Assembly: GCA_040219255.1 (NCBI GenBank)
Contig: JAVJSW010000042.1
Span: 64,001 to 128,000, forward strand
Reading direction: 5' to 3'
DNA length: 64,000 nucleotides
From: Sumerlaeia bacterium
Lineage (GTDB): Bacteria > Sumerlaeota > Sumerlaeia > SLMS01 > JAHLLQ01
A program made the position numbers and the translations under genes. This document shows, piece by piece, positions 24,525 to 43,632 of the stretch (position 1 is its first letter; each line of letters begins with the position of its first letter). The notes beneath the pieces are model-generated. The model saw only the letters and a list, made by a program, of their open reading frames with translations, was not told where the DNA came from and searched no databases.

Positions 24525-24906
24525 TCTAGAGAAGAACTCCTGTCGAATGGTGTCATGGAAAACCCGCCGGGCCGCTGGTGCTTTGCGGCGGGCGGGATGA
24601 ATGGCTTCGGAAAAGACTCCCGAAGGACTGGCAGGGTTGGGTGGCGCCGCAAGGAAGATTCGCGAAACGGCGATTTTCCCCGCCGCCGAAAAGGGACTGG
24701 CGGGAGCCGCTTTTTCTCCCTTTCCCCCAGTTCGCGTCTTCTCGTAGGAATTCACAGTGTCGGCCAAGGGCGCCCGGTGCGGCTTTTTTTTCTCAGCTCG
24801 AGCCCGCCCGGCCCGTCTTTTGTGAACCGGCTGCCCTTAGGCATTGTCTATCTCGCCGAACTCATTGGGCTTCCCAAAGCCCTTACCGATGAAGGGAACC
24901 TGATCG

Positions 24907-25422
24907 ATGACAGATTCGAAAACCAATCCGCGGCGGCGCCGCGCCATCGCCTTGACAGGCGCGCTGGCCTTCGCGCTGCTGCTTTCCGCTCCGTTGGCCT
25001 GGAGCCAGAGCGCCCGCGCTGGCGACAAGGTCTACGCCAAATTCGATAACGTCCAAGTGCGTGACACCAGCCGCCGCACCCTGGCGACCGTCTCCGCGGG
25101 GACGGAATTCGTCGTGGTCGCACCCGGCCGGCCTTTTTACGAGGTGAAACTGACCGATGGCCGCCAAGGCCTCGTGAGCTACTTCCAAATCCAGGAAGAT
25201 CAACCACGCGCCTCCGGTCTGGGAGGTGTTCTCCGCGGCGACCGCGATATCGCCGAGATGCGCACCGGCTCGGGTGCCCGTGGGCTTTCCGCCGCCGCGG
25301 TGGACCTGTCGGAAGACGGCGACGCGACCACCCAAGCCGTGGCCGCGGTGCGCGCCATGGAATCGACCGCCGCCAGCATTTCGAACGCGCAAGTCGAAGC
25401 CTTCGCTTCGCAGTTGGAGTAA
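24907..25422 (+). CDS. Secreted SH3-like domain protein
   Basis: Signal peptide (RRRRAIALTGALAFALLL..AWS); SH3b-like VRD...LATVSAG...FYEVKLTDGRQGLV; GARGLS; helical tail. Confidence 0.65.
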   Translation: MTDSKTNPRRRRAIALTGALAFALLLSAPLAWSQSARAGDKVYAKFDNVQVRDTSRRTLATVSAGTEFVVVAPGRPFYEVKLTDGRQGLVSYFQIQEDQPRASGLGGVLRGDRDIAEMRTGSGARGLSAAAVDLSEDGDATTQAVAAVRAMESTAASISNAQVEAFASQLE

Positions 25423-25426
25423 ACCA

Positions 25427-26470
25427 ATGACGACGAAACCCTTTGGCCGCCGTTGGGCGGCTCTCCTGATGGCGGGCGCCGTTTCGGCGGTTACGCTCGC
25501 CTGCACTTCGTCCCAGGTGGGCGAGGCGGTGCGCACCGGAGCCACGGCGGCCGGCGCGTCGGAAAAAGAAGCGGCTGGCTACGGCGCCGCGGCGGGCAAC
25601 CTGGTTTCCGCCACGGGCTCCATCGATCCGGCGACAGAACGGGCGCTGGGCGATGGCGTGGCGGTCAAGATTTTTGATCGCCTGGGGCCGCGGCTGGCGG
25701 ACGAAAAGGTTCAGGAATATGTGAATCTGGTGGGCCGCAGCCTGACCGGCAACAGCAGCCGAGCCGAACTGCCATTCGCCTTTGGCGTGGTGGAAAACGA
25801 CACGGTGGCGGCCTACGCTGCCCCCGGCGGGTACATTTTCATCACCACGGGCGCGCTGGCGCTGATGGAGAACGAGGCGGAGCTGGCGGGCGTTCTCGGC
25901 CATGAAATCACCCACGTCAACCAGCGTCACATGGAGCCGCTGTATCGCACAGCGCGACTTCTTGACGCGGCCCAGTTCGCGGCGCAAGCCAGCGGCGATG
26001 TCTCGGAAGAGCAGCTCGCAAAGTACAGCGACCTGGCCGATCAGGTGACCGATGCCATTCTGAACAAAGGGTTCGGCCCCGCCAAGGAATACGAAGCAGA
26101 CCAGATGGGCGTGGAATTGGCCGCCGTGTCGGGCTACGATCCCAATGGGCTGGCCGATTTCCTGCGCAAGATGCAGGCGATGGAAAGCCACAGCGGCGGT
26201 TGGTTCAGCACCCACCCGCCGACATCGAGCCGCATCGGCCGGCTGGAAACCCACACCACGCAAGTGCTCGGTGGCATGAGTGGCGCCCAGGGCCGGACAC
26301 GCTTTCAGAAGGTGATCTCCGGCATGAAGCCTTCCGCCCGCGCCCAGCAACCGGCCCGCGGCGCCGTGACCAAGCCCGGCGAATCCCCCGCCGCGACACA
26401 GCCCGGCACGCCGGTGCAAGGCGGGGGGGCGCGTTTCATGCCCCGCAGCAACGCCGTCGGCCAGCCTTGA
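25427..26470 (+). CDS. M48-family zinc metallopeptidase (BepA/YfgC/LoiP-like) lipoprotein
   Basis: TLAC lipobox; AYAAPGGYIFITTG, EAELAGVLGHEITH (HExxH at 25901-25915), EYEADQMG, GYDP, FSTHP. Confidence 0.9.
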   Translation: MTTKPFGRRWAALLMAGAVSAVTLACTSSQVGEAVRTGATAAGASEKEAAGYGAAAGNLVSATGSIDPATERALGDGVAVKIFDRLGPRLADEKVQEYVNLVGRSLTGNSSRAELPFAFGVVENDTVAAYAAPGGYIFITTGALALMENEAELAGVLGHEITHVNQRHMEPLYRTARLLDAAQFAAQASGDVSEEQLAKYSDLADQVTDAILNKGFGPAKEYEADQMGVELAAVSGYDPNGLADFLRKMQAMESHSGGWFSTHPPTSSRIGRLETHTTQVLGGMSGAQGRTRFQKVISGMKPSARAQQPARGAVTKPGESPAATQPGTPVQGGGARFMPRSNAVGQP

Positions 26471-26538
26471 CCCGGGGCGCGCTCTGACGATGGAGTGCGC
26501 CTCCCAAAACTTCACTTTTCCGCAGGGAGACCCGGTCC

Positions 26539-29500
26539 TTGGCCGACAGCCCGGACAATTCGCCCGAAGTCACCGAACCCACTCCTTCACAGGAGGGGGC
26601 GTCCCAGGGCACGTCCGCCCCACCAACGGGCAAGCGCAAGCGCCGTTGGTTGCGGCGGATTCTCTGGTTTCTCGCCGTCGTCCTCTTGCTGATCGTTCTG
26701 CTCGTGGCGCTGCTGCCGACGATTCTGACCAGTGGACCCGCTGAAGACTTCGCCTCCGAGCAGGCCAGCGAAATCCTCGGGCGGGAGGTGAAGCTCGAGG
26801 GTTTGAGCTTCGGTTGGACCAAGCCGCTGCGGCTCGACCGCCTGCGCGTCGGTGCCGAAGAGGGCGAAGGCGACTACCCGCTCCTCGACATCGAGAATGT
26901 TTCGATGCCGAAGTCGTTGCTGTCGCTGGCCCACCTGCCGCCCTACGAGGCCGAGCTGAATGTTGGCCGCATTGAGGCCAACGTTGTGAGAGACGAAGAC
27001 GGCGTGCTGAACCTGGAGAAAGTGCTGCAGGCCATCGAGGAGCGCTTTCCCCCGAAGGATGTGCCCGAACCGGAACCGGAGCCGGGCCCCATCGAGTTGC
27101 CGCTCGATCAGATCGACGTCGGCATCGAGACGATCGACCTGCGTTACGTGGACTTGGCGGCGACGCGGACTTTGATCGCGGGGCTGGAGGACGGCGCGCT
27201 TTCCGCCCGTTGGCCCGGCGGGCCGCAACCTCTGGCTCTGACCATCGAAGGGGCTTTTCGCCTGAATGACGAGCGCCTGCCCTGGGACGTCCAAGCCGAG
27301 GTGCGCGATTGGATCGACGCGGAGCGCGTCGTGACGACGGAGACGCTCACCCTGGCGGCGACTTCGGCGGAGTCCCTGGACAACCCCGACCTGACCGGTG
27401 GAGGGTTCTCTCTGCTGGCGACGCTGCGGGAAATGGAGACGAATTCCCTGAGGGTCCGGGTTCCTTTCACTCCCCTCTACGATTTCGCGAGGGGCTACCC
27501 GCTTGGCACGCTGTTGCCGCCGGACCTGGAACTTCCCGAAACCGTCGCCGGGACCCTCGAGCTTGGCCTGAAGGCCACCCATAGCCAGCAATTCCAGCAC
27601 TTCACCGCCGAAACGGAAGCCTCGCTGCGAGGTTTCGCGGTGGAAGGCGGCCCCGTGGCCGGGCGGTTGGCGTTGCCGGGCTTGGAGCATTCGGCCTTTG
27701 CCGAAGTCGACCTCGCCTCCCATACACTGGAGCGGCTGGACTTGTCGCTGGAGAGCGCGCCGTTGACGCTGACCGCCGAGGCGGCGGCGCTCGACTGGCT
27801 GCACCCGGCGGAGGGATCGCGGCTGATGGCGCAGGGGTCCTTCGATCTTGGCCGCTTGGCCTCGATCGGCGCGGAAGTGCTCGGCGCCGGCGATCAGGCT
27901 TCCCTGCTGGACGCCCGCTTCGGTTTCAGCGCCCGGCTCCTGGAGGAAAGCGGCCCGAATCTGGTCGCGGTGGGCCTGACCGCGGAGGCGGAGCTGGGAG
28001 AGTTGCGGACGCTCGAACCGTTCGCTGAGAACCCGGAGTTCCTGACGAGCGGCAGCCTGAACCTTCGGCCCTTGTCCTTCGTGGCGCGGGGGCCGGTGCG
28101 ATATCGCGCTTCGGAGCACCTCGTGACCGTGCCGGATCTGGAGTTCGCCGGGGCTTTCACGACCGCCTCCCTGCGAGCCGAGGTGAACTTGGACGATCCG
28201 CTGGCCACCTGGGAATTGGCGCTATTCGGCGGGACGCATCTGACGGACCTGATCGCCTGGGACGCGCTGGATCGCTTCAAACCGGCGGATCTGCCGGACG
28301 TGCGGGCCTTGGCCGATTACGCCATTTCGGGATACGCGGTGACGGCGACGGAAGTGGCCACCAGCGGCACCGTGAACCTGACGAATGTGACGGTGGATTT
28401 GCCGCTGCGGGGCAAAGTGCTGGACAACGCGACGATCGCGGCCGACTGGGATGTGCGGGCCGATTATGAAGACCTGACCGTGGACATCGCACGGGTCGGT
28501 CTGGAGAGCCCCATCCTGCGGGCGAATTTGCGGGGGCGCTACACGCCGCGGGACTTCAACCTGGAAGGCGGAGCCGGGGCGGACCTCGAACCGATCATGG
28601 ACATCGCGAGCCTCTTCGCCGAAATTCCGGCCCAAGTGGGCGGATCGTTGGCGGCGGAATTCAGCGGCTCGGGCAACCCGGGCGATGCGGTCGAGATGAC
28701 TTTGCGTGCCACCACTCCCCGGCCGCTGGCGGTGGAAATGCCAGGCCTGATCGCCTTCTCGGAACCGTTCAGCACATCGCTGGCGGGGCAGGCTTTGTGG
28801 GAGGGGGATGGAATCAGCACCGCCACGCTCGACCTCAATTCGTTCACCTTTGGCGACGCGCTGGCCGCCAACGGCAAGGCCGTCGTCGACCTGACCGGCG
28901 GACGGGGGCTGGACTTCGAATTGGACTCGCTGCTCAATACAAGCCCCACATTGGCGTTGCTGGACCCGGCGTTGCTGGAATCCTACGGCGCGGCCGTGGC
29001 GGCCGAGGGCACGATCGAAACATTCGTGGCCGTCGACGGCCCTTTTGCGTTCGGCGAGGACGGTGTAGTTTTCTCCGAAGCGTGGACCATCGCGGGCGAG
29101 AACGACATCGCGCTGGAGTTCGTCGACTGGCTTTATCAACCTGAGCCCGCGCCCGATGAAACGGGCGAGTTGGCCGAGCCGGAGCCGCTGGCCGGGGTCT
29201 TAAAAGAAATCTTCGACAATCGCAAGTTCAATGTCTCGGTGGACTTGACCTCTCCAGTAGAAACGCTCGTTTACGAGGATGGCGCCATCAGCGGCTTCGA
29301 TTTCGTCGAGGGGCCTATGGGCGTCGCGGTCGACACGACGCGGGTGGAGACGGCGGTGCGTTACGCCACCGGAGAGCCCATCCCCTTCTCGGTCATGCGC
29401 GGCAGCTATCTGGGCGGGGTGCGCTACGGCAACGAGATCGTGACGCTGGAATGGCCGCGCACGGACTTCGCCACGGCGACCGTTACGGATCTGGAGGCGA

Positions 29501-31155
29501 CCGAGTTCCTTCTCGACTGGCTGGAATTCCGGTCGGGGAACGTGTTTTCCGGCGATGTGTCGGCCCTGGTGGACTGGGCGACGCTGGCGTGGCGGGCGGA
29601 GGGCGGCTTACAGTTGGAGAGCGCCGACGCGTTGGACCAAACCTACACACTGAGCGACGAGGCGCTGGCAGCCCTGGTTCCGGAGATGCAAGGGGGCGCG
29701 GCGCTGCTGTTCGACCTGAAGGGATACCCGCCGCCAGTGGATTATCAGGTGCTCGACGGATGGCCGGTAACCGGGCGGTTGCGGGCTTCGCTGGAGGGCT
29801 TTCAAGCCCGCAGCCGGGGCGCCGAACCGGGCGAAGCGCTCTATGACCTGCAGGGCGTGCGCGGGGCGTATTCCCTGGACCTGCCAACGACCGGATCGCT
29901 GGCGATGGCGGCGGAGTTTCTGATCGACCGGGTGGACAGCAACGCGATTCCGGAAAAACCGCTGGAGGACCTGGAGTTCCGCGGCCATCTGGCAGTCGAT
30001 GAATTGGACGAGGTCAGCGGCGAACTGGAACTCTTCGAGATCGCAAGCTATCGCACGCAGGCCTCGGGCACGCTGCGCATCGAGGGATTGCGAGACGCCC
30101 TGGCGGCCAACGAGTGGGCCGCGCTGCCGGTGTGGCTGCAGAATGTCACGCTGCGCCTGAACGCGAATCTGGCTCAGGACCTGACAGGTTTGGACGGGTT
30201 CGTCGAAGACCTGGACTCAAGCGGCGCTCTGGACCTGAATCTGACGGTCAGCAACACGCCTCGCAATCGCTTCCGCTTCGCGCCGCTGCTCAAGGCGGAC
30301 AATGTGAACTTCGCTTACGGGCAGCTGTTCCGTTTGGACAACTTCCGCGGCGAGTGGAACCTGGAGAAGACGCTGCTCCTCGACCCTGGCGCCCGCCCCG
30401 CCCCGCCGGCGCCGCCGGGTATTCTGAAGATCGAGGACATCTTTATCGACGCTAATGGCCTGGGCGGTCATTTGTCGGGCACGACGCTGGAGTTGCGAGG
30501 AGTGGAGCGGGGCCTGACGATCAGTACGACCACGGTGAATTTCCTGGGCGGGCCGGCGACATCGCAGTGGAAGCTGTTCCTGGACCGGGGCCTGCCGATC
30601 CTTTCGGGCAGCATGGAGATCACCGGGCTGAACGGCGGGAACATTGTGCCCGGTTTCAATGTCCGGGATGTGAGGCAGGCGGAAATCAACGCGGTGGCTT
30701 CGCTTCGATGGATTTTTCCGGAAAACCCGGCTCAAACGCTGATGGACAATCTGGCATTGTCGGTGCGGACAACCCGCATTGGCTCCCAAGCCCTGCGGCA
30801 GATCCTGCGGGCGCTGGACTCGAACCAGGACGATCCGCGATTCCAGGCCGCCATCGCGGCGCTGAACCTGGGGTCGCCGTCGGATGTGGAGCTGCGGCTG
30901 GAAAATGCGCTGGTCACCGCACGGGGCGATTTGCGCCTCGCCACAGGCAACGCGGTACCTCTGCCGATCCTGGACCGCGAGCCGGTGGGCGGGTTGGTCG
31001 GCGTGTACGACTTCAGTGCGCAGGCGCAACTCCTCGAGATGGTGCGCCGCGCGATCATTGTGATTCTCTCGGACGATTTGAGCGTCCTGCAGGAAGCGAT
31101 CCGTCCCCTGGACGGAGACACGGAAGGTGGAGCGACCGATGACGAAGACGACTAA
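26539..31155 (+). CDS. Large AsmA/YdbH-like protein (N-terminal membrane anchor, beta-rich)
   Basis: Basic-then-hydrophobic anchor (KRKRRWLRRILWFLAVVLL...LP); LGREVKLEGLSFGW and VRDEDGVLNL AsmA-like N-terminus; ~1500 aa of amphipathic beta-strand pattern; precedes a DUF1318 gene. Confidence 0.6.
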   Translation: MADSPDNSPEVTEPTPSQEGASQGTSAPPTGKRKRRWLRRILWFLAVVLLLIVLLVALLPTILTSGPAEDFASEQASEILGREVKLEGLSFGWTKPLRLDRLRVGAEEGEGDYPLLDIENVSMPKSLLSLAHLPPYEAELNVGRIEANVVRDEDGVLNLEKVLQAIEERFPPKDVPEPEPEPGPIELPLDQIDVGIETIDLRYVDLAATRTLIAGLEDGALSARWPGGPQPLALTIEGAFRLNDERLPWDVQAEVRDWIDAERVVTTETLTLAATSAESLDNPDLTGGGFSLLATLREMETNSLRVRVPFTPLYDFARGYPLGTLLPPDLELPETVAGTLELGLKATHSQQFQHFTAETEASLRGFAVEGGPVAGRLALPGLEHSAFAEVDLASHTLERLDLSLESAPLTLTAEAAALDWLHPAEGSRLMAQGSFDLGRLASIGAEVLGAGDQASLLDARFGFSARLLEESGPNLVAVGLTAEAELGELRTLEPFAENPEFLTSGSLNLRPLSFVARGPVRYRASEHLVTVPDLEFAGAFTTASLRAEVNLDDPLATWELALFGGTHLTDLIAWDALDRFKPADLPDVRALADYAISGYAVTATEVATSGTVNLTNVTVDLPLRGKVLDNATIAADWDVRADYEDLTVDIARVGLESPILRANLRGRYTPRDFNLEGGAGADLEPIMDIASLFAEIPAQVGGSLAAEFSGSGNPGDAVEMTLRATTPRPLAVEMPGLIAFSEPFSTSLAGQALWEGDGISTATLDLNSFTFGDALAANGKAVVDLTGGRGLDFELDSLLNTSPTLALLDPALLESYGAAVAAEGTIETFVAVDGPFAFGEDGVVFSEAWTIAGENDIALEFVDWLYQPEPAPDETGELAEPEPLAGVLKEIFDNRKFNVSVDLTSPVETLVYEDGAISGFDFVEGPMGVAVDTTRVETAVRYATGEPIPFSVMRGSYLGGVRYGNEIVTLEWPRTDFATATVTDLEATEFLLDWLEFRSGNVFSGDVSALVDWATLAWRAEGGLQLESADALDQTYTLSDEALAALVPEMQGGAALLFDLKGYPPPVDYQVLDGWPVTGRLRASLEGFQARSRGAEPGEALYDLQGVRGAYSLDLPTTGSLAMAAEFLIDRVDSNAIPEKPLEDLEFRGHLAVDELDEVSGELELFEIASYRTQASGTLRIEGLRDALAANEWAALPVWLQNVTLRLNANLAQDLTGLDGFVEDLDSSGALDLNLTVSNTPRNRFRFAPLLKADNVNFAYGQLFRLDNFRGEWNLEKTLLLDPGARPAPPAPPGILKIEDIFIDANGLGGHLSGTTLELRGVERGLTISTTTVNFLGGPATSQWKLFLDRGLPILSGSMEITGLNGGNIVPGFNVRDVRQAEINAVASLRWIFPENPAQTLMDNLALSVRTTRIGSQALRQILRALDSNQDDPRFQAAIAALNLGSPSDVELRLENALVTARGDLRLATGNAVPLPILDREPVGGLVGVYDFSAQAQLLEMVRRAIIVILSDDLSVLQEAIRPLDGDTEGGATDDEDD

Positions 31156-31723
31156 ATGGCTGCAGAGGATGACGGTGTTGGCTAGCTTGGCGGTTCTGAC
31201 GATGGGCTGCGGGCGTGGGCTGTTCAACATCAACATCGTCAGCGAGCAAACGACGCTGGAAAAACAGGTGCTGGGTACCTACAGCAGTCTCGGCCAGGAT
31301 TTGACGATCTACAGCAGTGTGCGCGGCGTGGCGCCGGACGGCACGCTGAAGGTCCCGCCGGAACGAACGCAGAGCCAGCAGCGCGTCTTCGAAGCGATCC
31401 GCAATCGCGAGTACAACCGGGACGACGTGGAGCGGCTCCTGGCGGACGGCGTCGTGGGCGAAGGCAACGATGGTCTCCTGATGATGCGCGAGGAAGCGAG
31501 CGCCGAGACCTTCATCGCTCTTACGGCGGAGGAAGTGCTCGCTATCGTGGAGGAAGAGAATGAGGACCGCCGCGCGATCCTGAATCGGCTGGTGACGACC
31601 ACGCCGGGCGTGGAGCGCGATCAGGCGGAGGATGTGGCATGGATTTTCGCGAGCCTGAATCAGGACGCGGCCCCCGCGGGCGCCTGGGTACAGGAACGGC
31701 GGGGCGATTGGCGGCGCAAATGA
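31139..31723 (+). CDS. DUF1318 (YdbL-like) lipoprotein
   Basis: LTMGC lipobox; TLEKQVLG; GVVGEGNDGLL, EENEDRR, AGAWVQ..GDWRRK. Confidence 0.75.
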   Translation: MTKTTKWLQRMTVLASLAVLTMGCGRGLFNINIVSEQTTLEKQVLGTYSSLGQDLTIYSSVRGVAPDGTLKVPPERTQSQQRVFEAIRNREYNRDDVERLLADGVVGEGNDGLLMMREEASAETFIALTAEEVLAIVEEENEDRRAILNRLVTTTPGVERDQAEDVAWIFASLNQDAAPAGAWVQERRGDWRRK

Positions 31724-34700
31724 CGATCGGAACCCCACGCCGTTCGCGGTTCGCGGCGGGTGCCCTGGCGGCTCTCGCGGCCGCGCCCGCCTTCGCGCCC
31801 GCTCAGGATCTGGAGGAGGATTTCCGCGCCTCCCTGCCGCCCCAGTTGCGGCTGCTCACGTCTGAGATCGGCGACGACTACAGCCCGTCCCTCTCGAGCG
31901 AAGAAGAGTGGATGGCCTTCGTCTCCGAGCGCGATGGCAGCCCGGAAATCTTCATCACCCGATTTCGCCAGAACGTCCCCGTGCCGCCTTCCGTGATCGA
32001 ACCGAGCCCGGCGGAAGACCGCGATCCGGTGATTTCCCCCGACGACAAGTGGATCGCCTGGGTTTCCACGCGCGAGGATGCGTTCGGCGACATTTACGTG
32101 CAGATTCTGCCCTTTGCCGAACCGTTCTTCCGCATTCCGTTCAACCTGCCTTTCATACCTGTTCTTGGCAAGGAAGGAGCCGCGCGTGTCAGCGAACGCG
32201 GCTGGCGCGACCGCAATCCGCGCTGGGAAACTCGCGACGGCGACCTTTACCTCGTCTGGGACGCGGAATCGCCGGACGGTACGGTGGTGGTCAAGGAGGC
32301 GCGGCCTGGCCGCTGGCGGGTACAGGAACGGCCTTCCGAGGCGGCGACAAGCGTGCAGAACCTCGTTCCCCCCTTTGGCGCCACGGTGGTCGAACCGCCC
32401 GAGCGTGGCACGGAAACCTGGGTCCTGGCGGCCGACGACACGGACGGTGACGGCAGCCTGACCGCCGAAGACGCCCGAGGCGTCTGGGTTTACGATGAAG
32501 AGCGCGCGATCTGGCGCCAATTGACCCCGCCCCTGCCGGGCGTCACGACACCCCTGGTGGGAAACCTCGGCAGCCTGGTGATGAGTGTAAACCTGCGAGG
32601 AAACCGCGACCTGGTGGAGGTCGAGCGTCCCTACTTCGTGTCGCGCGTGGAGTCGGCGGGCGAGGCCTTGGAGCGTGGCCGCCAGATGCAGGCGAACTCG
32701 CCGCTGAACATCTGGCCCGCCGTGGCCGTGTTCCGCCAGGGCTACCTGCTGGGTCCGGAAACCACGCCGGGCCAGCAGGCGCTGCTGGAGGCGCTGGGCA
32801 TTCTCGATCTGGCGGAACGGCCCGAACAGGCCCTAGCCATGATCGGCGAAGCGCGCACGCGGGGCGGGCTGCAAGGTGAGGAGCGGCAACTGATCGAGAT
32901 TTTCGAAGTGGCCTTCCGAGTCTCCGCGGCGGACCGCGGCAACCGCACGCCCTCGGAAACCCGCCAAGTCCGGCGGGAGGCGATCACGGAACTGGAAGCT
33001 CTGATCGCCGGTGGCGGGCTGACGCCCCGGGCTCGAGGACGGGCCTTGCTGGTGGCGGCGAGGGTCGCGGAAGAGAACGGACAACCCAAGCAGGCACTGG
33101 ACTTCGCCCAACTCGTGGAGGCGGACAACGCCATCCCGGTCGAGTTGCGCGGCGAATCGGCGCTGCTGCGGGCGGGAATTTACCGAGGGCTGGGGCTGCC
33201 GGACGATGTGCAACGGGTGCTGCTGAACATCCTGCGCGAGTACGCGACGCTGGAAACGGCGGAAGAGCAGGCGGCGCTGATGCTGACCGAGGTGGCGCTG
33301 GAAACAGCCACGGGAGCGTCCCTCGATGAAAAGCTTCGCCCCGTGCGGGCGTTGGCCTCCGCCCATCCCGATCTGGATTCGGTGCAGGTGGCGGCGTCGC
33401 TGGCGGCGGGCAACCTGCTGGCGGACGAAGTACGCTTCGAGGAGGCGGAGGAGGCGCTGCGGACAGCGATGACGTACACCCGCTCCGAGCCCCGGCTGGC
33501 GGCCCGCGCCGCTTTCGATCTCGCCCAGGTCCTCTCGCGCCAGAACGAATTCGCCGAGGCCATCGAGACCTACGAATCGGTCTCGGCGGACATGCGCAGT
33601 CAATTCTTCGCCGGCGCCCCGAGCTTCATCCGCCGGGCGCGGGAAGCCCTTATCAACGAGTACCTGCAAAAGGGCGACTACGAGCTGCGGGTGGGCGATC
33701 CGGCTCTGGCGCTGCGCACCTTCAGCGATCTGCTGGAGCTGGAGCCAGAGCTGACGGAAGGCTGGCGCGGATTCATCGACGCGCAGTTCCGCCTCGGCAT
33801 CCTGGATAGCGCGGCCAAGGCCCGCTACCGGCGCGAGGCGCTGGCGAACTTGCGCAGCGGACTCGCCCAGTACAAATACGGGCTGGCGATCACCTATCCG
33901 GAACCCACCGGCGCCTCGCGCGACATCCTGGAGCGGGCCATCGTCCTCGACGGCGCCAATCCCTATTTCCACCAGACCTTGGGTTTCGTGCTCGAATGGC
34001 AGGGCCGGCGAGGCGACCGCGAGAATCTGGCGCGGGCCCTGACGGCGAACCAGCGCGCGCTGGCGCTCCTGGACCGCCGGTCGCGCCCGGCGGACTACGC
34101 CAACTTGCTCCTGAACGCGGGCAACGTGGCGGGGGCGCTGCAAAGCTACGGCCGCGCGGCCGATCTCTACACGCAGCGCGTCGATTCCGGCGTTCCCTTC
34201 CGCGATACGCGAACGGAATTTCTTTTCTATTACAACTACGGCGAGGCGCTTTTCCAGGCTTCCCGTCCGCTCGATGCGGCGGAGGCGTGGCAAACGGCTC
34301 TGGTGCTGATTCCGGCGTTGGTGAACTACAACATTCTGACCCCCGAGCAGGGCGAAGAACGGCAGCTCGAACTGTACGACCGGCGGGCGCTCGCTTTGCG
34401 CGAGGCGGGCCGGCGGCGCGAGGCCGCGGAGCTGTTCGATCTCGTGGCGCAAGCCAATCTGCCGCAGTCCTTCAACCGCGCCCGCGCCTACCGCAACAAG
34501 GGATTCACGTTGCACCTGCTGTCCCAGCGGCAAACCGGCGCGGCCCGCCGCGACACGCTGCTGCAGGCGAAAAAAGCGCTGGAGCAAGCGCTGGCGATCG
34601 TAACGTCGGAGGGGCTGACACTGACTTCTCTGACCGGCACGGACCTGACACCGTCGTTCCAGTTCGGCTTCGACATCACCATCTCGGCCGGGGGCTCGGG

Positions 34701-37700
34701 CGCGGCGCTGCAAGACTTCTCGCCCGAGGAGGAAGAGCAACTGATCCGCGCGGGACTCGCGCGCGTCACCCAGGACCTCGGCCAGCACGCGGAGGCCATC
34801 GCCCAATTGCGCCAGCAGCTCAGCAACCGCCCCAAAGTCAACGCGGCGAACAAGGGCTATTATCGAACTGTGCGTCTGGTGAATTATGAAAGCCTGGCGA
34901 ACGAGTACCTCAAACTCGGCGAGCGCGAGGAAGCGGCCAAGGCCCTCGTGCAGGCCATCGACGAAGCCTACTTCACCGTGAAGGACCTGCCCCAGGTGAA
35001 CGGGGCGGGGTTGTCGCTGGTGCTGGGGCGGTTGACGGAAATGGCGCTCGACGGCGAGCCCTTTCCGGTTTCCGCCGACGAGCTGAAGGAAACATGGCTG
35101 GGAGAGCGATTCCGCGGTGAGGACCCGGTCGAGGCACTGGATTGGTGCCTGGAGCAGGCGCTGGCTCTGCGGGGCGAGGAGACCGGCGAGTACATCGTTT
35201 TCCGCTATGAGTATCGCGGCCGGCTGCAACTGGCGCGGGCGCTCCTGGCCGAACGTTCAGCGGTGAATCTTGGCGAGGAGGGACTGCCGCTGCTGCGATC
35301 CGCGGTGGATGGCGAGCGGGCTCGCATCCTGGCGCAGCAGCTCATCGACAACTCGCTGACGTCTGAGGAGGGGGGCTCGGTAGAGAAACTGGCTCTCTTC
35401 GCCCACGCCGTTCTGATCCGGGCAGCGGCCCGCAGCGGCTCGGTGGAGGACACGGAAGCGGCGGTCGAATCGGCGCTGAACTACGCCCGGCAGGCGGGCT
35501 GGGAGCACTTCCAATGGTGGCTGGCGGCGCAACCGGCGTTGATCGCGGGCTATCCGCAGACGGTCGAATCGGTCCGGTTGGCGCTCGAGCAGCTCGAAGC
35601 GCAGACACCCGGCGTCGCGACGCAGGAAACTCCCGTGCCCTACGACTTGCTGGCGTACTGTGAGCAGGTGGCCGTTTCCGCCGCCGCGCGCGAGGGCGAT
35701 TGGAACGAGGCTTGGGGCTTGGCGGAGCGCTGGCGCGCCATGCGGTTGCAACTCGGATTCACGGAAAGCCTGCCCCCCGCCCGCGAGTCCGACACCGCCG
35801 GGGCCGAGTGGCTGGCCACGGCGCGGACGCTAAAGCGCGCCACCCGCGACAAGCTGGTGCGGCTGCGCGATCTCCCCTACCTGGACCCGAACGTGGCCCA
35901 GGCGCGGCGAGAACTGGCGGAAGCCCGCAATGCCTGGGTCGCCCATTTGAACGAAGGCCGCGACGCCGGTATCGCCGCGGCTCTGATGATCGCGCCACGC
36001 GCGTCCTACGGCGATGGCAACACGCCGATCGAATTCGCCTCGCAGCTCTTCGACTTCGGACTCGCGCTGCCCGGTCCGCCGGCGCTGGTGCTTGTGACGC
36101 GGGAAGGCGCCGCCGCCTGGGCGGACCCCGAGAACCCGACGCAGGCCCGCCCCCTCGCATCTCCGGCTGACTGGGATTGGCTCGCCCGCCAGGCCACGGT
36201 CTGGTTCGTCAGCGGCGAGCCGCTGTCACCGGGAGCCGCTCCGGAGACGGTGACAGTCAGCCGGCTGCTGAACGCGGAAATGACGGCGGAGGCGCTGCGA
36301 ACCTACCGCTTCGACGTCTCGCCAGAGCCGGTCGCGGTCGCTGCGCCGGAGCGAACACTGACCTCGTCGGAACTCCGCCAGAGACTTCTCGACGGGCCGG
36401 ACATCGAACTGACGGCGCCGATCCTGACAAACGCGAGCGATCCGCTGGCATGGACACTGGAGGGTTCCGAACTGCAACTACGCGGGCTGGTGGCGGCTTT
36501 GCCGGACGTGGCGATTCTTCGCGCGACCTTGAAGGAAGCCACAGGAACCCGCAAGATCACGGCGAATCTTTCGCTGCGCCATCGCATCAACCAAGAGTTC
36601 CTGGCGGCGGCGATGTTCTATGGCGGCGTGACGGAGGCGATGATCGACGGCGAGCGCTGGCTCGGCGCGATCTTCAGCCCGGTCGAGTTGCGAGAGTTGG
36701 CCGAGCAGCAGGACGATGCGGATGTCGGCACCGTGATCGGCCGGCTGGAAAGCGGCGAAACAGCGGAGGCCCTGGCGCCGGCGCAACGCCTCTTCTCGAT
36801 TCGCCAGACCCTGGAGAAAAGCCCGCAGGACGTGGCCGAGGCGGGGCTGGTTCTCGCCCAGATCGAGGCGGACCTGGACCGTTACGCCCAAGCAGCGGAC
36901 GCGGCGGCGCGTGTCGTGAACGTGCTGGAGGGACAGGACGCGGAGCCGGCGACACTGGTGAACGCGCTGGATACGCTGGCGAGCTACGCGACGCGGGCCC
37001 GGGATTTCGATCAGGCGCTGGAGGCCAAATCGCGCTCCGCAAGTCTTTATGAACAACTGGGTGCTCTGGACTTACAGACAGAGGCCATCGCGGAGATGGG
37101 CGTTCTGGAGGAAAACCGGGGCAATTACGAGGAGGCCCTAAGCCAGTTCCGCCGTGCGCGGCAAATGGCCGCCGATTTCGGCGATCCGTACCTGGAAGCC
37201 AAGCAGTATCAACGCATCGGGCGCATCTACCTGCTTCGCCAGAACGATTATGTCAAGGCGGGCGAAGCCTTCGCCCAGGCCCGCGAGCTGGCCAGTGCCG
37301 CGCAGGCGCTGGAATTGGAGCTGGAGTCGCGCCTCGATCTTGCGCGCGTCGATGCCCGGCTGGGGCGGTTCGATGCCGCCATCGAGACGGCGAGGGCCGT
37401 TCGCGAGGACTCCCGCGATGCCAGCCTGCCCGTGGTAGAGACGGACGGGCTCCTGGTGGAGGGTGAAACCCATTGGGCCAAAGCGGATTACTTCGAGGCC
37501 TTCCAGCGCCAGCGCGAGGCGTTGCTGCTGGCCCAGGAGACGGACGACCAGCCCAACCGCTTCCGCGCGCGGAACTTCGCGGGGCTGATCTATTGGGCCC
37601 TGAACGATACGGAGGCGGCGCTCGCCGAATTCGACGAGGCCCTGAGACTGGCCCGTGAAATGATCTTCGACCTGGAAGTGGCCACCGCCCACAACAACCG

Positions 37701-39552
37701 CGGCCTGGTCTTCCGGTCCATGAAGCAATACCCGCGCGCCCTGGTGGAATTCAACGCGGCGCTGGCCATCGACCGGCGCCAGGGCAATGACTGGGGCGTG
37801 GCCTATGCCCAGCGCAATATCGGTCTGACGCATCTGCAAGACGAAAAACCCGAGCAATCCGTGGCTCCGCTGGAGGAAGCGGTGGCTCTGACGCAGAAGA
37901 TCGGCGACGAGCTGAATGGCGCCAAGGCGCTCGTGGCGCTGGCGGATGCGCGGCGGCAGCTCGGCGAGACGGAAGCGGCAAGCGACCTGTACGACCGGGC
38001 GCTGGAGAAATCCCGCACCGTGATCGTTCCCGAGGTCGAATGGCGCGCGCTTTATGGCATGGCGAAGCTGGCCATGGAAGCCGGTGAACCGCAAGAAGCC
38101 CGGGCCCGCCTGGGCGAGGCCATCGACGTGGTGGAGCGCCTGCGCGCCCGAATCCGCATCGAAGAATTCCAGGACGGTTTCCTGCTCGATAAGCAGGAAC
38201 TCTATGACGACATGGTGCGGCTGCTGTTGGACCAAGACGACGTGGCCGGGGCGTATAACTACAGCGAGCGGTCGCGCGGACGGCAGTTCCTGGACTTGCT
38301 GGGCAACGCCAGCATCGACTTCCGCAACCCGCAGGACACCGCCACCATCGAGCGGGAGGCCGCTCTGAGATCGGACATCGAGTCCCTCGAGCGCCAGGTA
38401 GCCGGGGCGGAGGACGAGGCCGCGCGCGAGCGGCTCGCGGGGAATCTGGAGTCGGCGCGGCGCGATTACAGCGCCTTCCTTATCGAGCTGCGGGCCCGCG
38501 ACCCGAAGCTGTCGAGCTTTGTCGAGGTCCCGACGCTCGATGTGGCGGAGTTGCAGCGGCTCCTCGAGCCCGGCACCCGCATCGTCGAGTACCACGTGCT
38601 GCCGGACGAGCTGGTGGCCTGGGTAGTCGGGCCGAACGATTTGCGCGTCGTCCGAACGCCGGTGACGCGGGATGAGCTGACACAAGATATCGGCGTTCTG
38701 CGCCTGAGAATGCAGGACTTCCGGTCCGTGGCGAACGATCTGATGGGCCTGTCGGCTTTGCTAATCGAGCCGGTGCTGCCGCTCCTGGACGGGGACGTGA
38801 AGCGCCTGGGAATCGTGGCCCACCGCGAGTTGCACACGATGCCGTTTTCCGCTTTGCCGGCCGGCCCCGAGTCCGACCTGATCGACCGCTTCGCGCTCTT
38901 CAACGCGCCCAGCGCCAGCGTTCTGCGCTACACGTTCGGGCGCCGTGGAGAGGGTCGCGGCGACCGCGTCCTGGCTCTTGGCAATCCAAACCTGGGCGAC
39001 GAGCGCCTCGATCTGCCCTTTGCGCAGAAGGAGGCGGAGCGCCTGCTCTGGCAGTTCCCCAACGCGACCCTTCTGACCGGCGAGGAAGCTTCGGAAACCT
39101 ACGTCCAGAACACCTCCGACGAATTCGCCATCCTGCACCTCGCCACCCACGGCGAGTTCGACCCCCAGATGCCCCTGCTGTCCGGCGTCCGGCTGACGCC
39201 GGACACGGAAAACGACGGCGTGCTCAGCGCCCAGGAGGTTTTCGGCCTTAGCCTGCGGGCCGATATGGTCGTGCTGTCGGCTTGCCAGACGGGCCTCGGC
39301 CGCGTCTCCAACGGCGACGACGTGGTGGGCCTGAACCGGGCGTTCTTGTTCGCTGGCACGAGGCAATTGCTCTCGACGCTGTGGCGCGTCGACGACGTTT
39401 CGACGGCGGTGCTGGTGAAGCACTTCTACCGCAATCTATCGGCCGGGATGGATACGGCGGAGGCTCTGCGACAGGCGCAACTGACGGTGCGGCAACGCTT
39501 CGACCACCCGGCCCACTGGGCCGGCATGAACCTGACGGGCGACTGGAAGTAA
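31720..39552 (+). CDS. Exported PD40/TolB-like repeat + TPR + CHAT (caspase-like) protease, ~2610 aa
   Basis: Signal peptide (AFAPA-Q); PSLS..WMAFVSERDG and PVISPDDKWIAWVSTR PD40 blades; many TPRs; CHAT motifs LHTMPF, LPFAQKEA, ILHLATHG (His 39148), VVLSACQTG (Cys 39283), STLWRVDD, HPAHWAG. Confidence 0.88.
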   Translation: MTIGTPRRSRFAAGALAALAAAPAFAPAQDLEEDFRASLPPQLRLLTSEIGDDYSPSLSSEEEWMAFVSERDGSPEIFITRFRQNVPVPPSVIEPSPAEDRDPVISPDDKWIAWVSTREDAFGDIYVQILPFAEPFFRIPFNLPFIPVLGKEGAARVSERGWRDRNPRWETRDGDLYLVWDAESPDGTVVVKEARPGRWRVQERPSEAATSVQNLVPPFGATVVEPPERGTETWVLAADDTDGDGSLTAEDARGVWVYDEERAIWRQLTPPLPGVTTPLVGNLGSLVMSVNLRGNRDLVEVERPYFVSRVESAGEALERGRQMQANSPLNIWPAVAVFRQGYLLGPETTPGQQALLEALGILDLAERPEQALAMIGEARTRGGLQGEERQLIEIFEVAFRVSAADRGNRTPSETRQVRREAITELEALIAGGGLTPRARGRALLVAARVAEENGQPKQALDFAQLVEADNAIPVELRGESALLRAGIYRGLGLPDDVQRVLLNILREYATLETAEEQAALMLTEVALETATGASLDEKLRPVRALASAHPDLDSVQVAASLAAGNLLADEVRFEEAEEALRTAMTYTRSEPRLAARAAFDLAQVLSRQNEFAEAIETYESVSADMRSQFFAGAPSFIRRAREALINEYLQKGDYELRVGDPALALRTFSDLLELEPELTEGWRGFIDAQFRLGILDSAAKARYRREALANLRSGLAQYKYGLAITYPEPTGASRDILERAIVLDGANPYFHQTLGFVLEWQGRRGDRENLARALTANQRALALLDRRSRPADYANLLLNAGNVAGALQSYGRAADLYTQRVDSGVPFRDTRTEFLFYYNYGEALFQASRPLDAAEAWQTALVLIPALVNYNILTPEQGEERQLELYDRRALALREAGRRREAAELFDLVAQANLPQSFNRARAYRNKGFTLHLLSQRQTGAARRDTLLQAKKALEQALAIVTSEGLTLTSLTGTDLTPSFQFGFDITISAGGSGAALQDFSPEEEEQLIRAGLARVTQDLGQHAEAIAQLRQQLSNRPKVNAANKGYYRTVRLVNYESLANEYLKLGEREEAAKALVQAIDEAYFTVKDLPQVNGAGLSLVLGRLTEMALDGEPFPVSADELKETWLGERFRGEDPVEALDWCLEQALALRGEETGEYIVFRYEYRGRLQLARALLAERSAVNLGEEGLPLLRSAVDGERARILAQQLIDNSLTSEEGGSVEKLALFAHAVLIRAAARSGSVEDTEAAVESALNYARQAGWEHFQWWLAAQPALIAGYPQTVESVRLALEQLEAQTPGVATQETPVPYDLLAYCEQVAVSAAAREGDWNEAWGLAERWRAMRLQLGFTESLPPARESDTAGAEWLATARTLKRATRDKLVRLRDLPYLDPNVAQARRELAEARNAWVAHLNEGRDAGIAAALMIAPRASYGDGNTPIEFASQLFDFGLALPGPPALVLVTREGAAAWADPENPTQARPLASPADWDWLARQATVWFVSGEPLSPGAAPETVTVSRLLNAEMTAEALRTYRFDVSPEPVAVAAPERTLTSSELRQRLLDGPDIELTAPILTNASDPLAWTLEGSELQLRGLVAALPDVAILRATLKEATGTRKITANLSLRHRINQEFLAAAMFYGGVTEAMIDGERWLGAIFSPVELRELAEQQDDADVGTVIGRLESGETAEALAPAQRLFSIRQTLEKSPQDVAEAGLVLAQIEADLDRYAQAADAAARVVNVLEGQDAEPATLVNALDTLASYATRARDFDQALEAKSRSASLYEQLGALDLQTEAIAEMGVLEENRGNYEEALSQFRRARQMAADFGDPYLEAKQYQRIGRIYLLRQNDYVKAGEAFAQARELASAAQALELELESRLDLARVDARLGRFDAAIETARAVREDSRDASLPVVETDGLLVEGETHWAKADYFEAFQRQREALLLAQETDDQPNRFRARNFAGLIYWALNDTEAALAEFDEALRLAREMIFDLEVATAHNNRGLVFRSMKQYPRALVEFNAALAIDRRQGNDWGVAYAQRNIGLTHLQDEKPEQSVAPLEEAVALTQKIGDELNGAKALVALADARRQLGETEAASDLYDRALEKSRTVIVPEVEWRALYGMAKLAMEAGEPQEARARLGEAIDVVERLRARIRIEEFQDGFLLDKQELYDDMVRLLLDQDDVAGAYNYSERSRGRQFLDLLGNASIDFRNPQDTATIEREAALRSDIESLERQVAGAEDEAARERLAGNLESARRDYSAFLIELRARDPKLSSFVEVPTLDVAELQRLLEPGTRIVEYHVLPDELVAWVVGPNDLRVVRTPVTRDELTQDIGVLRLRMQDFRSVANDLMGLSALLIEPVLPLLDGDVKRLGIVAHRELHTMPFSALPAGPESDLIDRFALFNAPSASVLRYTFGRRGEGRGDRVLALGNPNLGDERLDLPFAQKEAERLLWQFPNATLLTGEEASETYVQNTSDEFAILHLATHGEFDPQMPLLSGVRLTPDTENDGVLSAQEVFGLSLRADMVVLSACQTGLGRVSNGDDVVGLNRAFLFAGTRQLLSTLWRVDDVSTAVLVKHFYRNLSAGMDTAEALRQAQLTVRQRFDHPAHWAGMNLTGDWK

Positions 39553-39565
39553 CCGCCGAGAAGGC

Positions 39566-42500
39566 TCACTCTTCGACCGAGAAGACTTTGACGCTTTCCA
39601 GGAAGAGTGCGCCATTCGCGGCGTCGCCGTTGCCAGCGATGTCGAGCAGATCGAAGGAAATCAGCAACTCGCGGCCGGATTCGTTCAACGGCGGCAGAAT
39701 CACACGGTACGTCTTCGACTCCGTGGGCTTGGGGCCGTTGACGGGCATATCGGTCGTCGAGGTGATCTGGGTGTAGCGGGACATCTGGAATTCGCTCTCG
39801 TTGAGCCGCATGCGGAAGGCGGGCACTTCGGCGGGAACGGCCACATCGGTGCCTACGGTGAACTCCACGATGTAGAGCCTGCCGATCTCGATGGGAACGC
39901 GATCGGCGGCGGGAACTTCCCACCACCCGACGACACCCTGGCCATTGGTGGGCTGGGTACGCAGGGAAAGTCCCTGACTTGTCGAGGCGAAGGACGGTGC
40001 CTCGAACGCCCCTTCGATGGTGTTGCTGGTCCAGCCATGGTCCATGGAGGCAGTGAAATCCCACTGGCGCTCGAGCCGGCCCGCCGCAGGGACTTCCGTG
40101 CGTGCGATCCAGACGGTATCGAGAAACAGAGTCACCTGACTAGCGTCTCCACCACCCAGGTTCAAGAGATCGAAGGCGGCCTGCAAGACGTCGGACGCCT
40201 CGGCCATTTCGAGATAAACGGTGTAGGTCGAGGCTCGTTCGCCCAAGACTGGCGAGAGCACACCCTGACCGGTGGACTCGAGGGTCAGAACGTCGTCCCG
40301 CTCATTGTCGCGGCTGGCGGTGCGCAGGCGGAACTGCGGAACGGTGTCGCGGTTGGGCGCATTGGAGGCGACGGCGAACTCGGCTTTGATGAGGGAAAGG
40401 GAATCGCTGGCCGCCGCGTCGTCCAAAACCGCTTCCCAAGGCGAGTGCCAGAATCCGAAATCGGTCCGGTTATCGCCGGTCTGGATGGCGAGGCTCGACA
40501 CCGGCTCGGTGGTGACAAATCCCGCAGGTTCGGAGAAGAATCCGGGCAAGGTGACGAATGTCCATCCGGAGGAGGCGCCGGGTCCTTCGAAGGAATAAGA
40601 AGCGACGGGGCCCTTCGGGTCCGCGGCGATCCCCCGCAACCGGACGATGAAAGCGTCCGCGCCGTTCGCCTGGACCGGAATGGTCATCGCGCCTTCATAA
40701 ACGCCCGGTTCGGTGGACTTGAGGATGAGCGCGATTTCGGTCTGCTCACCGGGGGCGAGGCTGCCTGCGTGCGAACCGAGTTCGGAGAAAGGCGGCGTCA
40801 CTTCCACCGCGTCCAAAGGGATGGCGGTGCCGCCGTTGTTGAGAATCTGGAACACGACGGGGGGTGCGTCCTCCGAACGGAGGCGCAGCGGGTCGAACTC
40901 GACGACTTGCCCGGAAACGATCGGCTGTCGCGTGGACTTGTCGAGAACGGCATAGGAGGGCGCGGCGGGGCCTTCGCATTCGTAATCCCGCACGAGCGGC
41001 CGCATTTCCACCGAGAGCAATTCGCCGCCGTCCTGGAAAGCGGAATCGGTGATCCGCAAAGTCCACTGGCCGGCGAGCCGTTTCCCGTTCAGCGACGAAA
41101 GCGCGCCCTCCGGGCGGAAGGAACCGCTGAACGGAGCATTGCCGTTCGCGATTGCGATTCGGGCTTCGTCGTCAAAGACCGTGCCGTTCATATTGTCTCC
41201 CGAGTCGCCCCGCTGATCGATCAGCGACACTTGGGTTCCGTCGGGATGGATCAGGGTGATACTCACATCGTCCATGAACGTGTGCGTCAGGTTGATTTGG
41301 ACGTTCAGGTCGGTGAGAACTCCGTCCTGGGCGACCGCCATCGGCACATTCACCGATCCCGGGTCCGGTCCGATGGAGACATCGGTGAAGGTCAGCGGGA
41401 GGGTGAGTCGCTGCTCGCGCGCGGTGCCGACGGGCAAGGCGAGTGGGAACTGCTCGCCTCCCTCGTCGAAGGTCAAGTCGACCGAGAAAGCGACGACTTC
41501 GCCGCAGATCGCATCCCCAGCCAGATCGAACACGAAGGCCGCATCGGGCAAAACCGTTTCGCCCTGGGGGATCGTCCCGTAGGAAACCGTCGCGTTGCGG
41601 ACGACCACACTGGGCGTGGCGGTAGAGAGTGTGGCGAGGACGTTGGTGGCGCTCCGCCCCTCGTTTTCGATCGCCAGAGTGAGACTCAAACCCGTTTCGC
41701 CTGGATCGGCGGCGCCGTTACCGTTGCCGTTTTCCGCGCTGTCGGTCAGAGCGGCGGAGGCGACGCCGAGGTGGGGGATGAAATCGCAGACCGGACCGGT
41801 GGGCAGTTCGAAGCGGATCACCTGATCCGGCTGGCCGGAAACGGTGGCGACCAGTTGCAAGAAGACTGGCGTGCCACAGGCGAAGTCCTCGCCGATGCGA
41901 ATGGCATAAGGGGCAAGGCTTTCCCCCGTTTGGCCTCCGGAGATGGAGGGGAAGGCGATGGGTCCGGCGGTTTGCACGGACACCTGCGCGGAAACCGCTT
42001 CGAGGCGGGCAGTGAAGGCGGGGACGGGACCCGAGGCGTTATTGACGAGGCGCACGGTGAATGCCAGACCCGCCTCGCCCGGTTCCGCGACCCCATCGCC
42101 ATCGCCGCCCGCCGAATCGTCAAGCGGTCCCAGGGAGGCGAACACGAGGGAGGGCAAGTCCGTCCCATCGAGGGTCAGGACACCCGTGTTCAGGGGATCC
42201 AGCCAATCCTTGAGGCGCGTCTGCGGAGTTCCGCCGCCCTCCCAAGACACCGCGATGCGGCCGTACCAATCGGGGTCGTCGTTGCCGCAGGCTGCGAACC
42301 CGCCGGTCAACTGTCCGACGATGCGCTTGTTCGGATCGAAAAGGGCCGAACCGGAGGAACCGGGCTCGGTGGTGCCCAGATTCCAATCGGCCACGCGAAT
42401 ATGGGTCGTTCCCGAACCGGCGTCGCCCAAATAGGCGGAAAGGGCGGTCGGGTCGTCTTCGAAGGAAATGCGCTTTTCCTCGACGTTCGGATGATGGATC

Positions 42501-43543: not shown

Positions 43544-43632
43544 GAGCGCTCGGCGGTAGAGAGAAAATAGCACCCCCGAAATTTGGGACACAGACCGCTC
43601 CCCCGCCAAGCAAAACTCTGCCTCCTGGAGGC

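Follow-up and report, generated by a model that had tools for sequence, protein, structure and literature searches.

A run of five genes (here g1 to g5) was analysed in a 64,000-nucleotide (nt) stretch of DNA from a Sumerlaeia bacterium of the poorly studied phylum Sumerlaeota (assembly GCA_040219255.1, contig JAVJSW010000042.1, positions 64,001 to 128,000 of the forward strand). This whole stretch is referred to as the window, and coordinates are counted from its first letter. The window is a chromosomal stretch of 65% G+C, and its source genome comprises 5.35 Mb and is 92% complete. The five genes encode an SH3b-like protein, a protease of the M48 family, a long protein of the AsmA/DUF748 type, a lipoprotein with a YdbL (DUF1318) domain and a giant exported protein built of PD40, TPR and CHAT parts. 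The locus is a real and conserved elaboration of the AsmA-like/YdbL module, undescribed in the literature searched. The genes and features considered (lengths in amino acids, aa) are:

24907-25422, + strand: g1, 171 aa; SH3b-like secreted protein with a signal peptide, a beta-rich SH3-like part and a helical tail
25427-26470, + strand: g2, 347 aa; M48 zinc-metalloprotease lipoprotein
25493-25504, + strand: lipobox TLAC of g2
25901-25915, + strand: zinc motif HEITH of g2 (residue 159)
26087-26101, + strand: EYEAD of g2 (residue 221; downstream Glu ligand)
26539-31155, + strand: g3, 1538 aa; AsmA/DUF748-type protein, predicted to be anchored in the inner membrane
26659-26727, + strand: transmembrane helix of g3 (residues 41-63)
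31139-31723, + strand: g4, 194 aa; lipoprotein with a YdbL/DUF1318 domain
31199-31210, + strand: lipobox TMGC of g4 (Cys24)
31720-39552, + strand: g5, 2610 aa; exported PD40-TPR-CHAT protein
32434-32454, + strand: DDTDGDG motif in the PD40 propeller region of g5
about 38749-39543, + strand: CHAT domain of g5
within 39139-39153, + strand: His2477 of g5
within 39274-39294, + strand: Cys2522 of g5

The genes are co-oriented and separated, in gene order, by 4, 68, -17 and -4 nt, an arrangement reported in an initial annotation of this DNA and confirmed by open reading frame (ORF) calls. The junction of g1 and g2 reads TAA-ACCA-ATG, g3 and g4 overlap by 17 nt, and g4 and g5 share an ATGA overlap. 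Purine-rich boxes are found ahead of the starts of g2 and g4 (GGTGGAG 5' of the ATG of g4), and the G+C content at third codon positions (0.77-0.82) is of the coding type for all five genes. Scans at the ends of the operon revealed no promoter-like site of the sigma-70 type and, for terminators, merely weak hairpins located inside genes. Read by eye, export signals are present in all five products, as had been proposed: n/h/c-type signal peptides in g1 and g5, lipoboxes in g2 and g4 and a transmembrane helix in g3; signals of these types recur in the relatives. The composition given in the initial annotation (SH3, M48, AsmA-type, DUF1318 and TPR-CHAT) was right, according to Pfam and, for g1, to ESM Atlas and profile comparisons.

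Architecture of the encoded proteins

In E. coli, the AsmA-like protein YdbH and the outer-membrane lipoprotein YnbE bridge the membranes, and YdbL binds YnbE and tunes the assembly, as described in two reports (PMC11126948; bioRxiv 10.64898/2026.03.16.712125). The parallel that had been drawn between this system and the window is sound: in both, the gene of an AsmA-like, inner-membrane-anchored protein lies beside a DUF1318/YdbL gene in one tight operon. The systems differ in that g3 is much longer than YdbH (1538 vs 879 aa) and in that the operon of the window adds the 2610-aa PD40-TPR-CHAT protein and a pair of SH3b and M48 genes.

The C-terminal half of g4 matches E. coli YdbL in both sequence and fold. 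Residues 97-194 constitute a YdbL/DUF1318 domain (Pfam 1.5e-10, 41.9 bits with a cut-off of 27), and the alignment with E. coli YdbL by hhalign reached 93.8% (E 1.8e-7). The AlphaFold2 model of g4 had a predicted local distance difference test (pLDDT) score of 88, and its sole Foldseek match in PDB at E<=1e-3 was 28oj, the crystal structure of E. coli YdbL, with which the predicted fold aligned at a template modelling (TM) score of 0.79 on the target and a root mean square deviation of 3.0. The g4 profile gave 0 matches to PDB sequences at E<=1. The domain is preceded by a conserved, family-specific helical extension of about 70 residues (25-96) and by the lipobox, whose Gly23 and Cys24 are retained by at least 90% of the 25 relatives compared. 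With its 194 aa, lipobox and N-terminal extension, g4 departs from the small soluble form of YdbL (about 108 aa), which works with the lipoprotein YnbE. Of the initial assignment to DUF1318, the domain stood, while the protein as a whole turned out to be a lipoprotein form with a 70-residue extension, and no YnbE was found (see below). This long lipoprotein form of DUF1318 is represented by at least 112 representative clusters at E<=1e-30 and by 1601 at E<=1e-3; nearly all of the best 150 clusters are 170-250 aa long. In the source genome there is a single DUF1318 gene, the one inside the g1-g5 operon. A fusion of YnbE and YdbL was considered as the origin of g4 and dropped, as hhalign to YnbE aligned the lipobox alone (probability 2.9%).

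Residues 32-200 of g3 match DUF748 (1.1e-14, 53.9 bits with a cut-off of 50), AsmA (2.9e-4) and YhdP (6.7e-3) in Pfam, and the nearest ESM Atlas clusters are AsmA/DUF748/YhdP (0.95-0.97). The AlphaFold2 model of residues 340-1538, built with 20 relatives (pLDDT 85, predicted TM score 0.54), consists nearly entirely of strands, with short helices about every 100-155 residues (model positions about 98, 229, 344, 462, 567, 690 and 845), a spacing that presumably fits the repeat unit of the AsmA-like/repeating beta-groove superfamily. Both hallmarks of an AsmA-like protein, that is an N-terminal anchor with an AsmA/DUF748-type domain and a long repeated beta body, are found in g3, the latter as predicted by the model. 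g3 also resembles TamB and YhdP in size class, in its anchored N-terminus and in the long beta-sheet body predicted for it, with weak Pfam matches to YhdP and AsmA; unlike TamB of the TamB/TamA pair, it is without a DUF490/TamB domain and has no adjoining Omp85 gene.

Shorter forms of g3 (1041-1061 aa) are encoded in loci L029, L030, L032 and L034, and also in L079 and L082 (locus numbers are our own). They are devoid of the part matching residues ~380-888 of the window protein, roughly one third of the beta body, with the other operon genes unchanged. Three more ORFs of the DUF748/AsmA-N type were identified in the source genome (G000): C60:159567-160286 (1461 aa), C60:169457-170071 (646 aa) and C37:44766-45218 (411 aa).

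In the giant protein g5, a signal peptide and a PD40 propeller region are followed by TPR-like repeats over about 2000 aa and, at the C-terminus, by a CHAT domain (Pfam: CHAT 1.6e-63, 215.3 bits; PD40 6.1e-12; TPR_12 8.9e-31). The His/Cys dyad of CHAT is intact in g5 and unchanged in all 19 relatives aligned with it. The signal peptide, on which the proposal of an exported CHAT protein had been made to depend, is present, and the N-termini of all relatives bear either a signal peptide or a lipobox (the latter in L032, L034, L048 and L050). g5 is the sole CHAT match in the source genome; 24 of 25 genomes in the order (the source genome among them) yielded exactly one such match, and the missing one falls at a contig end. 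A search with the propeller region retrieved 23 relatives, all of 2512-2793 aa and all with both CHAT and PD40, which carry generic source names alone (e.g. 'CHAT domain-containing protein').

Several known proteins share parts of this architecture. As in Csx29 (Craspase) and separase, a TPR scaffold is followed by a caspase-like CHAT domain; unlike these cytoplasmic proteins, g5 is predicted to be exported and has no CRISPR context. Its NCBIfam score for Csx29 is 30.7 bits (cut-off 300), confined to the CHAT part, and no cas genes were found among the neighbours. The initial annotation held that the best-characterised CHAT proteases are cytoplasmic, which applies to Csx29 and separase; a periplasmic TPR-CHAT protein has, however, already been characterised, namely the anti-sigma factor DdvA of Myxococcus xanthus, with a His-Cys dyad (PMC11506125). 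Like DdvA, g5 has a TPR-CHAT module with a His-Cys dyad that is predicted to sit outside the cytoplasm. DdvA itself is membrane-anchored, has about 1000 aa, carries a zinc anti-sigma domain on the cytoplasmic side and has a sigma factor as partner. In contrast, g5 comprises 2610 aa and begins with a predicted cleavable signal peptide, followed by a PD40 propeller; neither in it nor in its neighbours was a domain of the sigma or anti-sigma type detected. The PD40 repeats at the N-terminus of g5 are reminiscent of TolB of the Tol-Pal system, but g5 scores only about 25 bits (cut-off 343), and a separate TolB-like gene (319.7 bits) is located on another contig. PADLOC matched g5 to TPR (1.1e-10) and BovA (2.5e-5) only, and none of g1-g4 had a match.

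In the precomputed Pfam lists of 24 relatives of g5 (P0156-P0179), PF26549 occurs in 23 and PF26550 in 14. Neither family was found in the literature searched, and part of the giant might already be described in these curated entries. No second CHAT module was recognized in g5, either by BLASTP of CHAT against the rest of the protein or by Pfam at E<=10 on residues 1350-1700. A non-TPR segment, residues 1424-1652 (window 35989-36675), showed a weak hhalign likeness to the C-terminal half of CHAT (21%, E 0.001).

In g2, Pfam identified Peptidase_M48 (1.3e-28, 100.5 bits); its tail is rich in Pro, Ala and Gln. HExxH was found in 17 of 18 ORFs of g2 relatives, and the lipobox pattern in 13 of the 18 and, by eye, in 4 of the remaining 5. 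g2 is a lipoprotein like LoiP and shares the M48 fold and zinc motif with both BepA, which has a role in outer-membrane quality control, and LoiP. It is neither of the two, since its NCBIfam scores (BepA 108.5 bits, cut-off 570; LoiP 65.9 bits, cut-off 365) lie far below both equivalog cut-offs. Moreover, unlike BepA, g2 has no TPR domain detectable by Pfam or NCBIfam and is paired, and once fused, with an SH3b domain. g1 itself had no Pfam or NCBIfam match at E<=0.01. Its SH3 assignment is based on ESM Atlas features (0.96; 25 of 30 matches in SH3_3/SH3_4 clusters) and on a match of the g1 profile (E 3.4e-8) to residues 9-85 of an SH3-M48 fusion protein (locus L069, described below), the N-terminus of which is SH3_4 by Pfam (24.9 bits, cut-off 24.1).

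Conservation within and beyond the order

Each of the 24 other genomes sampled from the order contains g4, while 16 further genomes of the class yielded 2 weak matches only. A family profile run on a phylum sample of 75 genomes detected the full-length form of g4 in those 24, in the source genome and in one outlier (G069). In the other 49 genomes, DUF1318 domain-only matches were found in 10 and none in 39; G069 also has one domain-only match. This outlier (L048/L071, G069:C26) belongs to another family and carries, besides full-length g4, a giant gene for 2799 aa.

Gene order was compared in 24 Sumerlaeota-type loci from public genomes. A PD40/CHAT gene directly follows g4 in 24 of 24 and a g3 homologue precedes g4 in 23. 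An M48 gene was found in 21, as was a g1 homologue (20 by profile, just upstream of the M48 gene, and 1 by tblastn). There are three exceptions: the contig of L037 begins within g3, in L031 another gene replaces g1 and g2, and in L048, from the outlier G069, the gene ahead of g4 is not g3 (see below).

Outside the Sumerlaeota, 8 distant loci with relatives of g4 at 26-37% identity were identified. Their labels are given as deposited, some being doubtful: Deferribacteres, Nitrospinota, Salidesulfovibrio brasiliensis JCM 12178, KSB1, Delongbacteria, 'Cytophagia' and 'Bacteroidaceae'. All 8 have a giant gene with PD40 after g4. In each of the 7 examined for it (all but L053), Pfam, the g3 profile or hhalign identified a g3 homologue ahead of g4; hhalign of unannotated upstream ORFs with g3 gave 99.3% (E 1.9e-20). 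The remaining neighbours in these loci are housekeeping genes. In 16 metagenome contigs, the start of g5 follows g4 in 15, and the sixteenth has no room for it. L086, like L069, has a g3 homologue ahead of g4 and the giant gene after it. The synteny that had been set as one test of the idea is therefore conserved across the order and recurs in distant phyla, which places the five-gene arrangement beyond chance.

The relation of the SH3 and M48 genes to the other three is different. L069, from a second genome of the order of Salidesulfovibrio (Desulfovibrionales), encodes a g3-like protein (1263 aa), a g4-like protein, a giant with CHAT (2886 aa) and, immediately behind the giant gene, a 410-aa fusion in which SH3_3/SH3_4 is joined to Peptidase_M48 (M48 part 28% identical to g2, E 6e-24). 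This fusion, at a different position from that of g1 and g2, links g1 to g2 and both to g3-g4-g5. In S. brasiliensis, adjacent ORFs for an SH3-like (187 aa) and an M48 protein (298 aa) are located at 12516-13979 of L104 (G075:C13), a contig separate from that of the trio, and the SH3 and M48 genes are therefore a separable unit. The conserved core is the g3-g4-g5 trio, which is joined by SH3 and M48 in the Sumerlaeota and in one Desulfovibrionales genome only. Thus, the view of the five genes as one system stands for the trio and has to be loosened for the SH3-M48 pair. In line with the initial annotation, which knew of no described system of this composition, the combination of g3-g4-g5 with SH3b and M48 was not found in the literature searched, a partial set from which subscription journals were missing.

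Proposed function of the module

The best reading of these data, to which we give about an even chance, is that an intermembrane bridge of the YdbH-YnbE-YdbL kind has acquired dedicated periplasmic proteases. It builds on the layout of the genes, the domain assignments, the active-site residues, the export signals and the conserved synteny; from these we infer a lipid cargo, an outer-membrane location of g4, contacts among the products and targets of the proteases. The locus would encode a module of the AsmA-like (repeating beta-groove) kind that reaches across the envelope, in which g3 would be anchored in the inner membrane and span the periplasm with its long beta-sheet body. The YdbL-type domain of g4 would be lipid-tethered, most likely to the outer membrane, and could serve as a docking or assembly partner at the far end of g3, thus playing the role that YnbE and YdbL play for YdbH in E. 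coli, with the outer-membrane end simplified. The likeliest cargo would be phospholipid moving between the membranes. g5 may be a dedicated third component, whose TolB-like propeller and TPR scaffold of about 2000 residues would bind partners and whose CHAT domain might cleave a bridge component or a client, be it to control assembly, for turnover or for quality control. The g1 SH3b protein and the g2 M48 lipoprotease would be a further, separable unit for proteolysis that was taken into the operon in Sumerlaeota. Proteolytic control of such a bridge has a precedent in DegP, which degrades free YdbL in vitro (bioRxiv 10.64898/2026.03.16.712125).

Several observations weigh against the bridge with proteases. 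Residues 340-1538 of g3 do not resemble E. coli YdbH in sequence (hhalign probability 0.2%), and no YdbH-family Pfam match was obtained for g3 at E<=0.01, so that of the label 'AsmA/YdbH-like' used in the initial annotation the AsmA/DUF748 type of the N-terminus holds and the sequence likeness to YdbH does not. The same annotation had envisaged a beta-taco; a nearly all-beta repeat body is indeed predicted, but Foldseek PDB and VIA searches with the model (1199 residues) returned generic curved beta-sheets only (the ApoB100 belt, LptD and outer-membrane barrels at Z 10-13), with no TamB chain listed. As these fold matches are merely generic, the hydrophobic groove of g3 is not demonstrated. 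YnbE (PF13617) had no match at E<=0.1 in the source genome, although with a model of 34 positions and a genome 92% complete its absence is unproven. In the outlier L048, g4 and g5 sit directly after a PMT glycosyltransferase gene instead of a g3 gene. The giants in loci labelled KSB1 or 'Cytophagia' (L055, L056 and L057; 1801-1815 aa) contain PD40 and TPR and no CHAT (Pfam on L055 and L056), while still being preceded by g3- and g4-like genes; proteolysis therefore cannot be a universal function of the trio. SH3 and M48 are absent beside the trio in 7 of 8 distant genome loci with room for them and in L086, and no CHAT gene occurs in the 12 kb before the S. brasiliensis pair. A complex prediction with three chains (the C-terminal 380 aa of g3, the N-terminal 316 aa of g5 and g4) gave an ipSAE of 0.00 in both runs, which counts neither way.

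Another reading makes g3 a conduit of the TamB or GspN kind for proteins or lipoproteins, rather than for bulk phospholipid; its passengers, bound for the outer membrane or the cell surface, would be g2, g4 and lipidated variants of g5, or the giant itself. We consider it unlikely, yet it is in keeping with the lipoprotein nature of g2 and g4, with the lipobox of some g5 relatives and with the lack of any TamB domain (PF04357) match in the source genome, which leaves a TamB-like role vacant; TAM and GspN are cases in which AsmA-like proteins have been tied to protein or lipoprotein delivery (PMC12802150). However, LolA (59.5 bits) and two Omp85 genes in the genome indicate that ordinary routes exist, no Omp85 gene adjoins the operon, and g4 resembles YdbL, a bridge helper, and no known cargo. 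A smaller probability is assigned to a sensor of envelope damage or of phages, in which TPR-CHAT would respond to a protein signal in the periplasm by cutting a target, as proposed for DdvA, with the bridge as effector or target. DdvA, a periplasmic TPR-CHAT protein with a His-Cys dyad, has been put forward as a signal-triggered protease (PMC11506125), and the weak PADLOC matches of g5 point the same way. Against this stand the lack, within the operon and next to it, of genes for sigma or anti-sigma factors, kinases or nucleases, the lack of PADLOC matches for g1-g4 and the low Csx29 score. In addition, the module is single-copy, none of the genomes sampled from the order is without it, and it has housekeeping flanks in all lineages (mnmG, purL, glmS and UDP-sugar genes), unlike defence islands. 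It is quite improbable that the genes are neighbours merely as co-regulated envelope genes that do not act on one another. SH3-M48 and g3 are each unlinked from g4-g5 in some genomes, as such a reading would have it; but g4 and the giant gene are adjacent wherever there is room (24/24, 8/8 and 15/16, plus L069 and L086), and their codons often overlap, across several phyla, while the flanks change completely, which is unexpected for unrelated genes.

Within the reading of a bridge with proteases, a bolder version is possible, if rather doubtful: g5 could be a physical subunit of the lipid bridge, and its caspase-like protease could cut g4 or the tip of g3, for example, so that the bridge is opened, shut or taken apart. 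Regulated proteolysis would in that case gate the lipid supply of the outer membrane in several phyla, and in some lineages SH3b-M48 would add a further level of control.

Knowledge of the supply and balance of phospholipids in the Gram-negative outer membrane rests on E. coli YhdP, TamB and YdbH and a few partners. The present loci are a natural, multi-phylum variant in which a bridge protein and a YdbL-type helper are encoded together with a huge periplasmic scaffold, which in most lineages has an intact caspase-like protease at its end. Should these components act together, this points to proteolytic control of a lipid bridge, and the widespread, unexplained exported TPR-CHAT giants would, if it is true, gain a concrete cellular role. 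Since S. brasiliensis JCM 12178, a carrier of the trio, is a cultured and non-pathogenic sulfate reducer, the idea is open to ordinary genetics.

Genes flanking the operon

The g1-g5 operon is flanked by a divergent rotamase gene and mnmG on one side and by a convergent gene for 1539 aa on the other:

20480-22402, - strand: mnmG
22503-24767, - strand: 754-aa protein with a PPIC-type rotamase domain, divergent from g1
39566-44185, - strand: 1539-aa ORF with a proprotein-convertase P-domain (7.4e-12), convergent with g5 and ending 13 nt past it

The peptidylprolyl isomerase (rotamase) and MnmG genes stand beside the module in none of the related loci searched (L013-L058). As the flanking genes of the window recur in none of these loci, the borders of the module are set at g1 and g5. 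A relative of the P-domain ORF (32% identity over 156 aa) is located directly upstream of the g3 homologue in L014/L031, L031 being the Sumerlaeota locus without g1 and g2.

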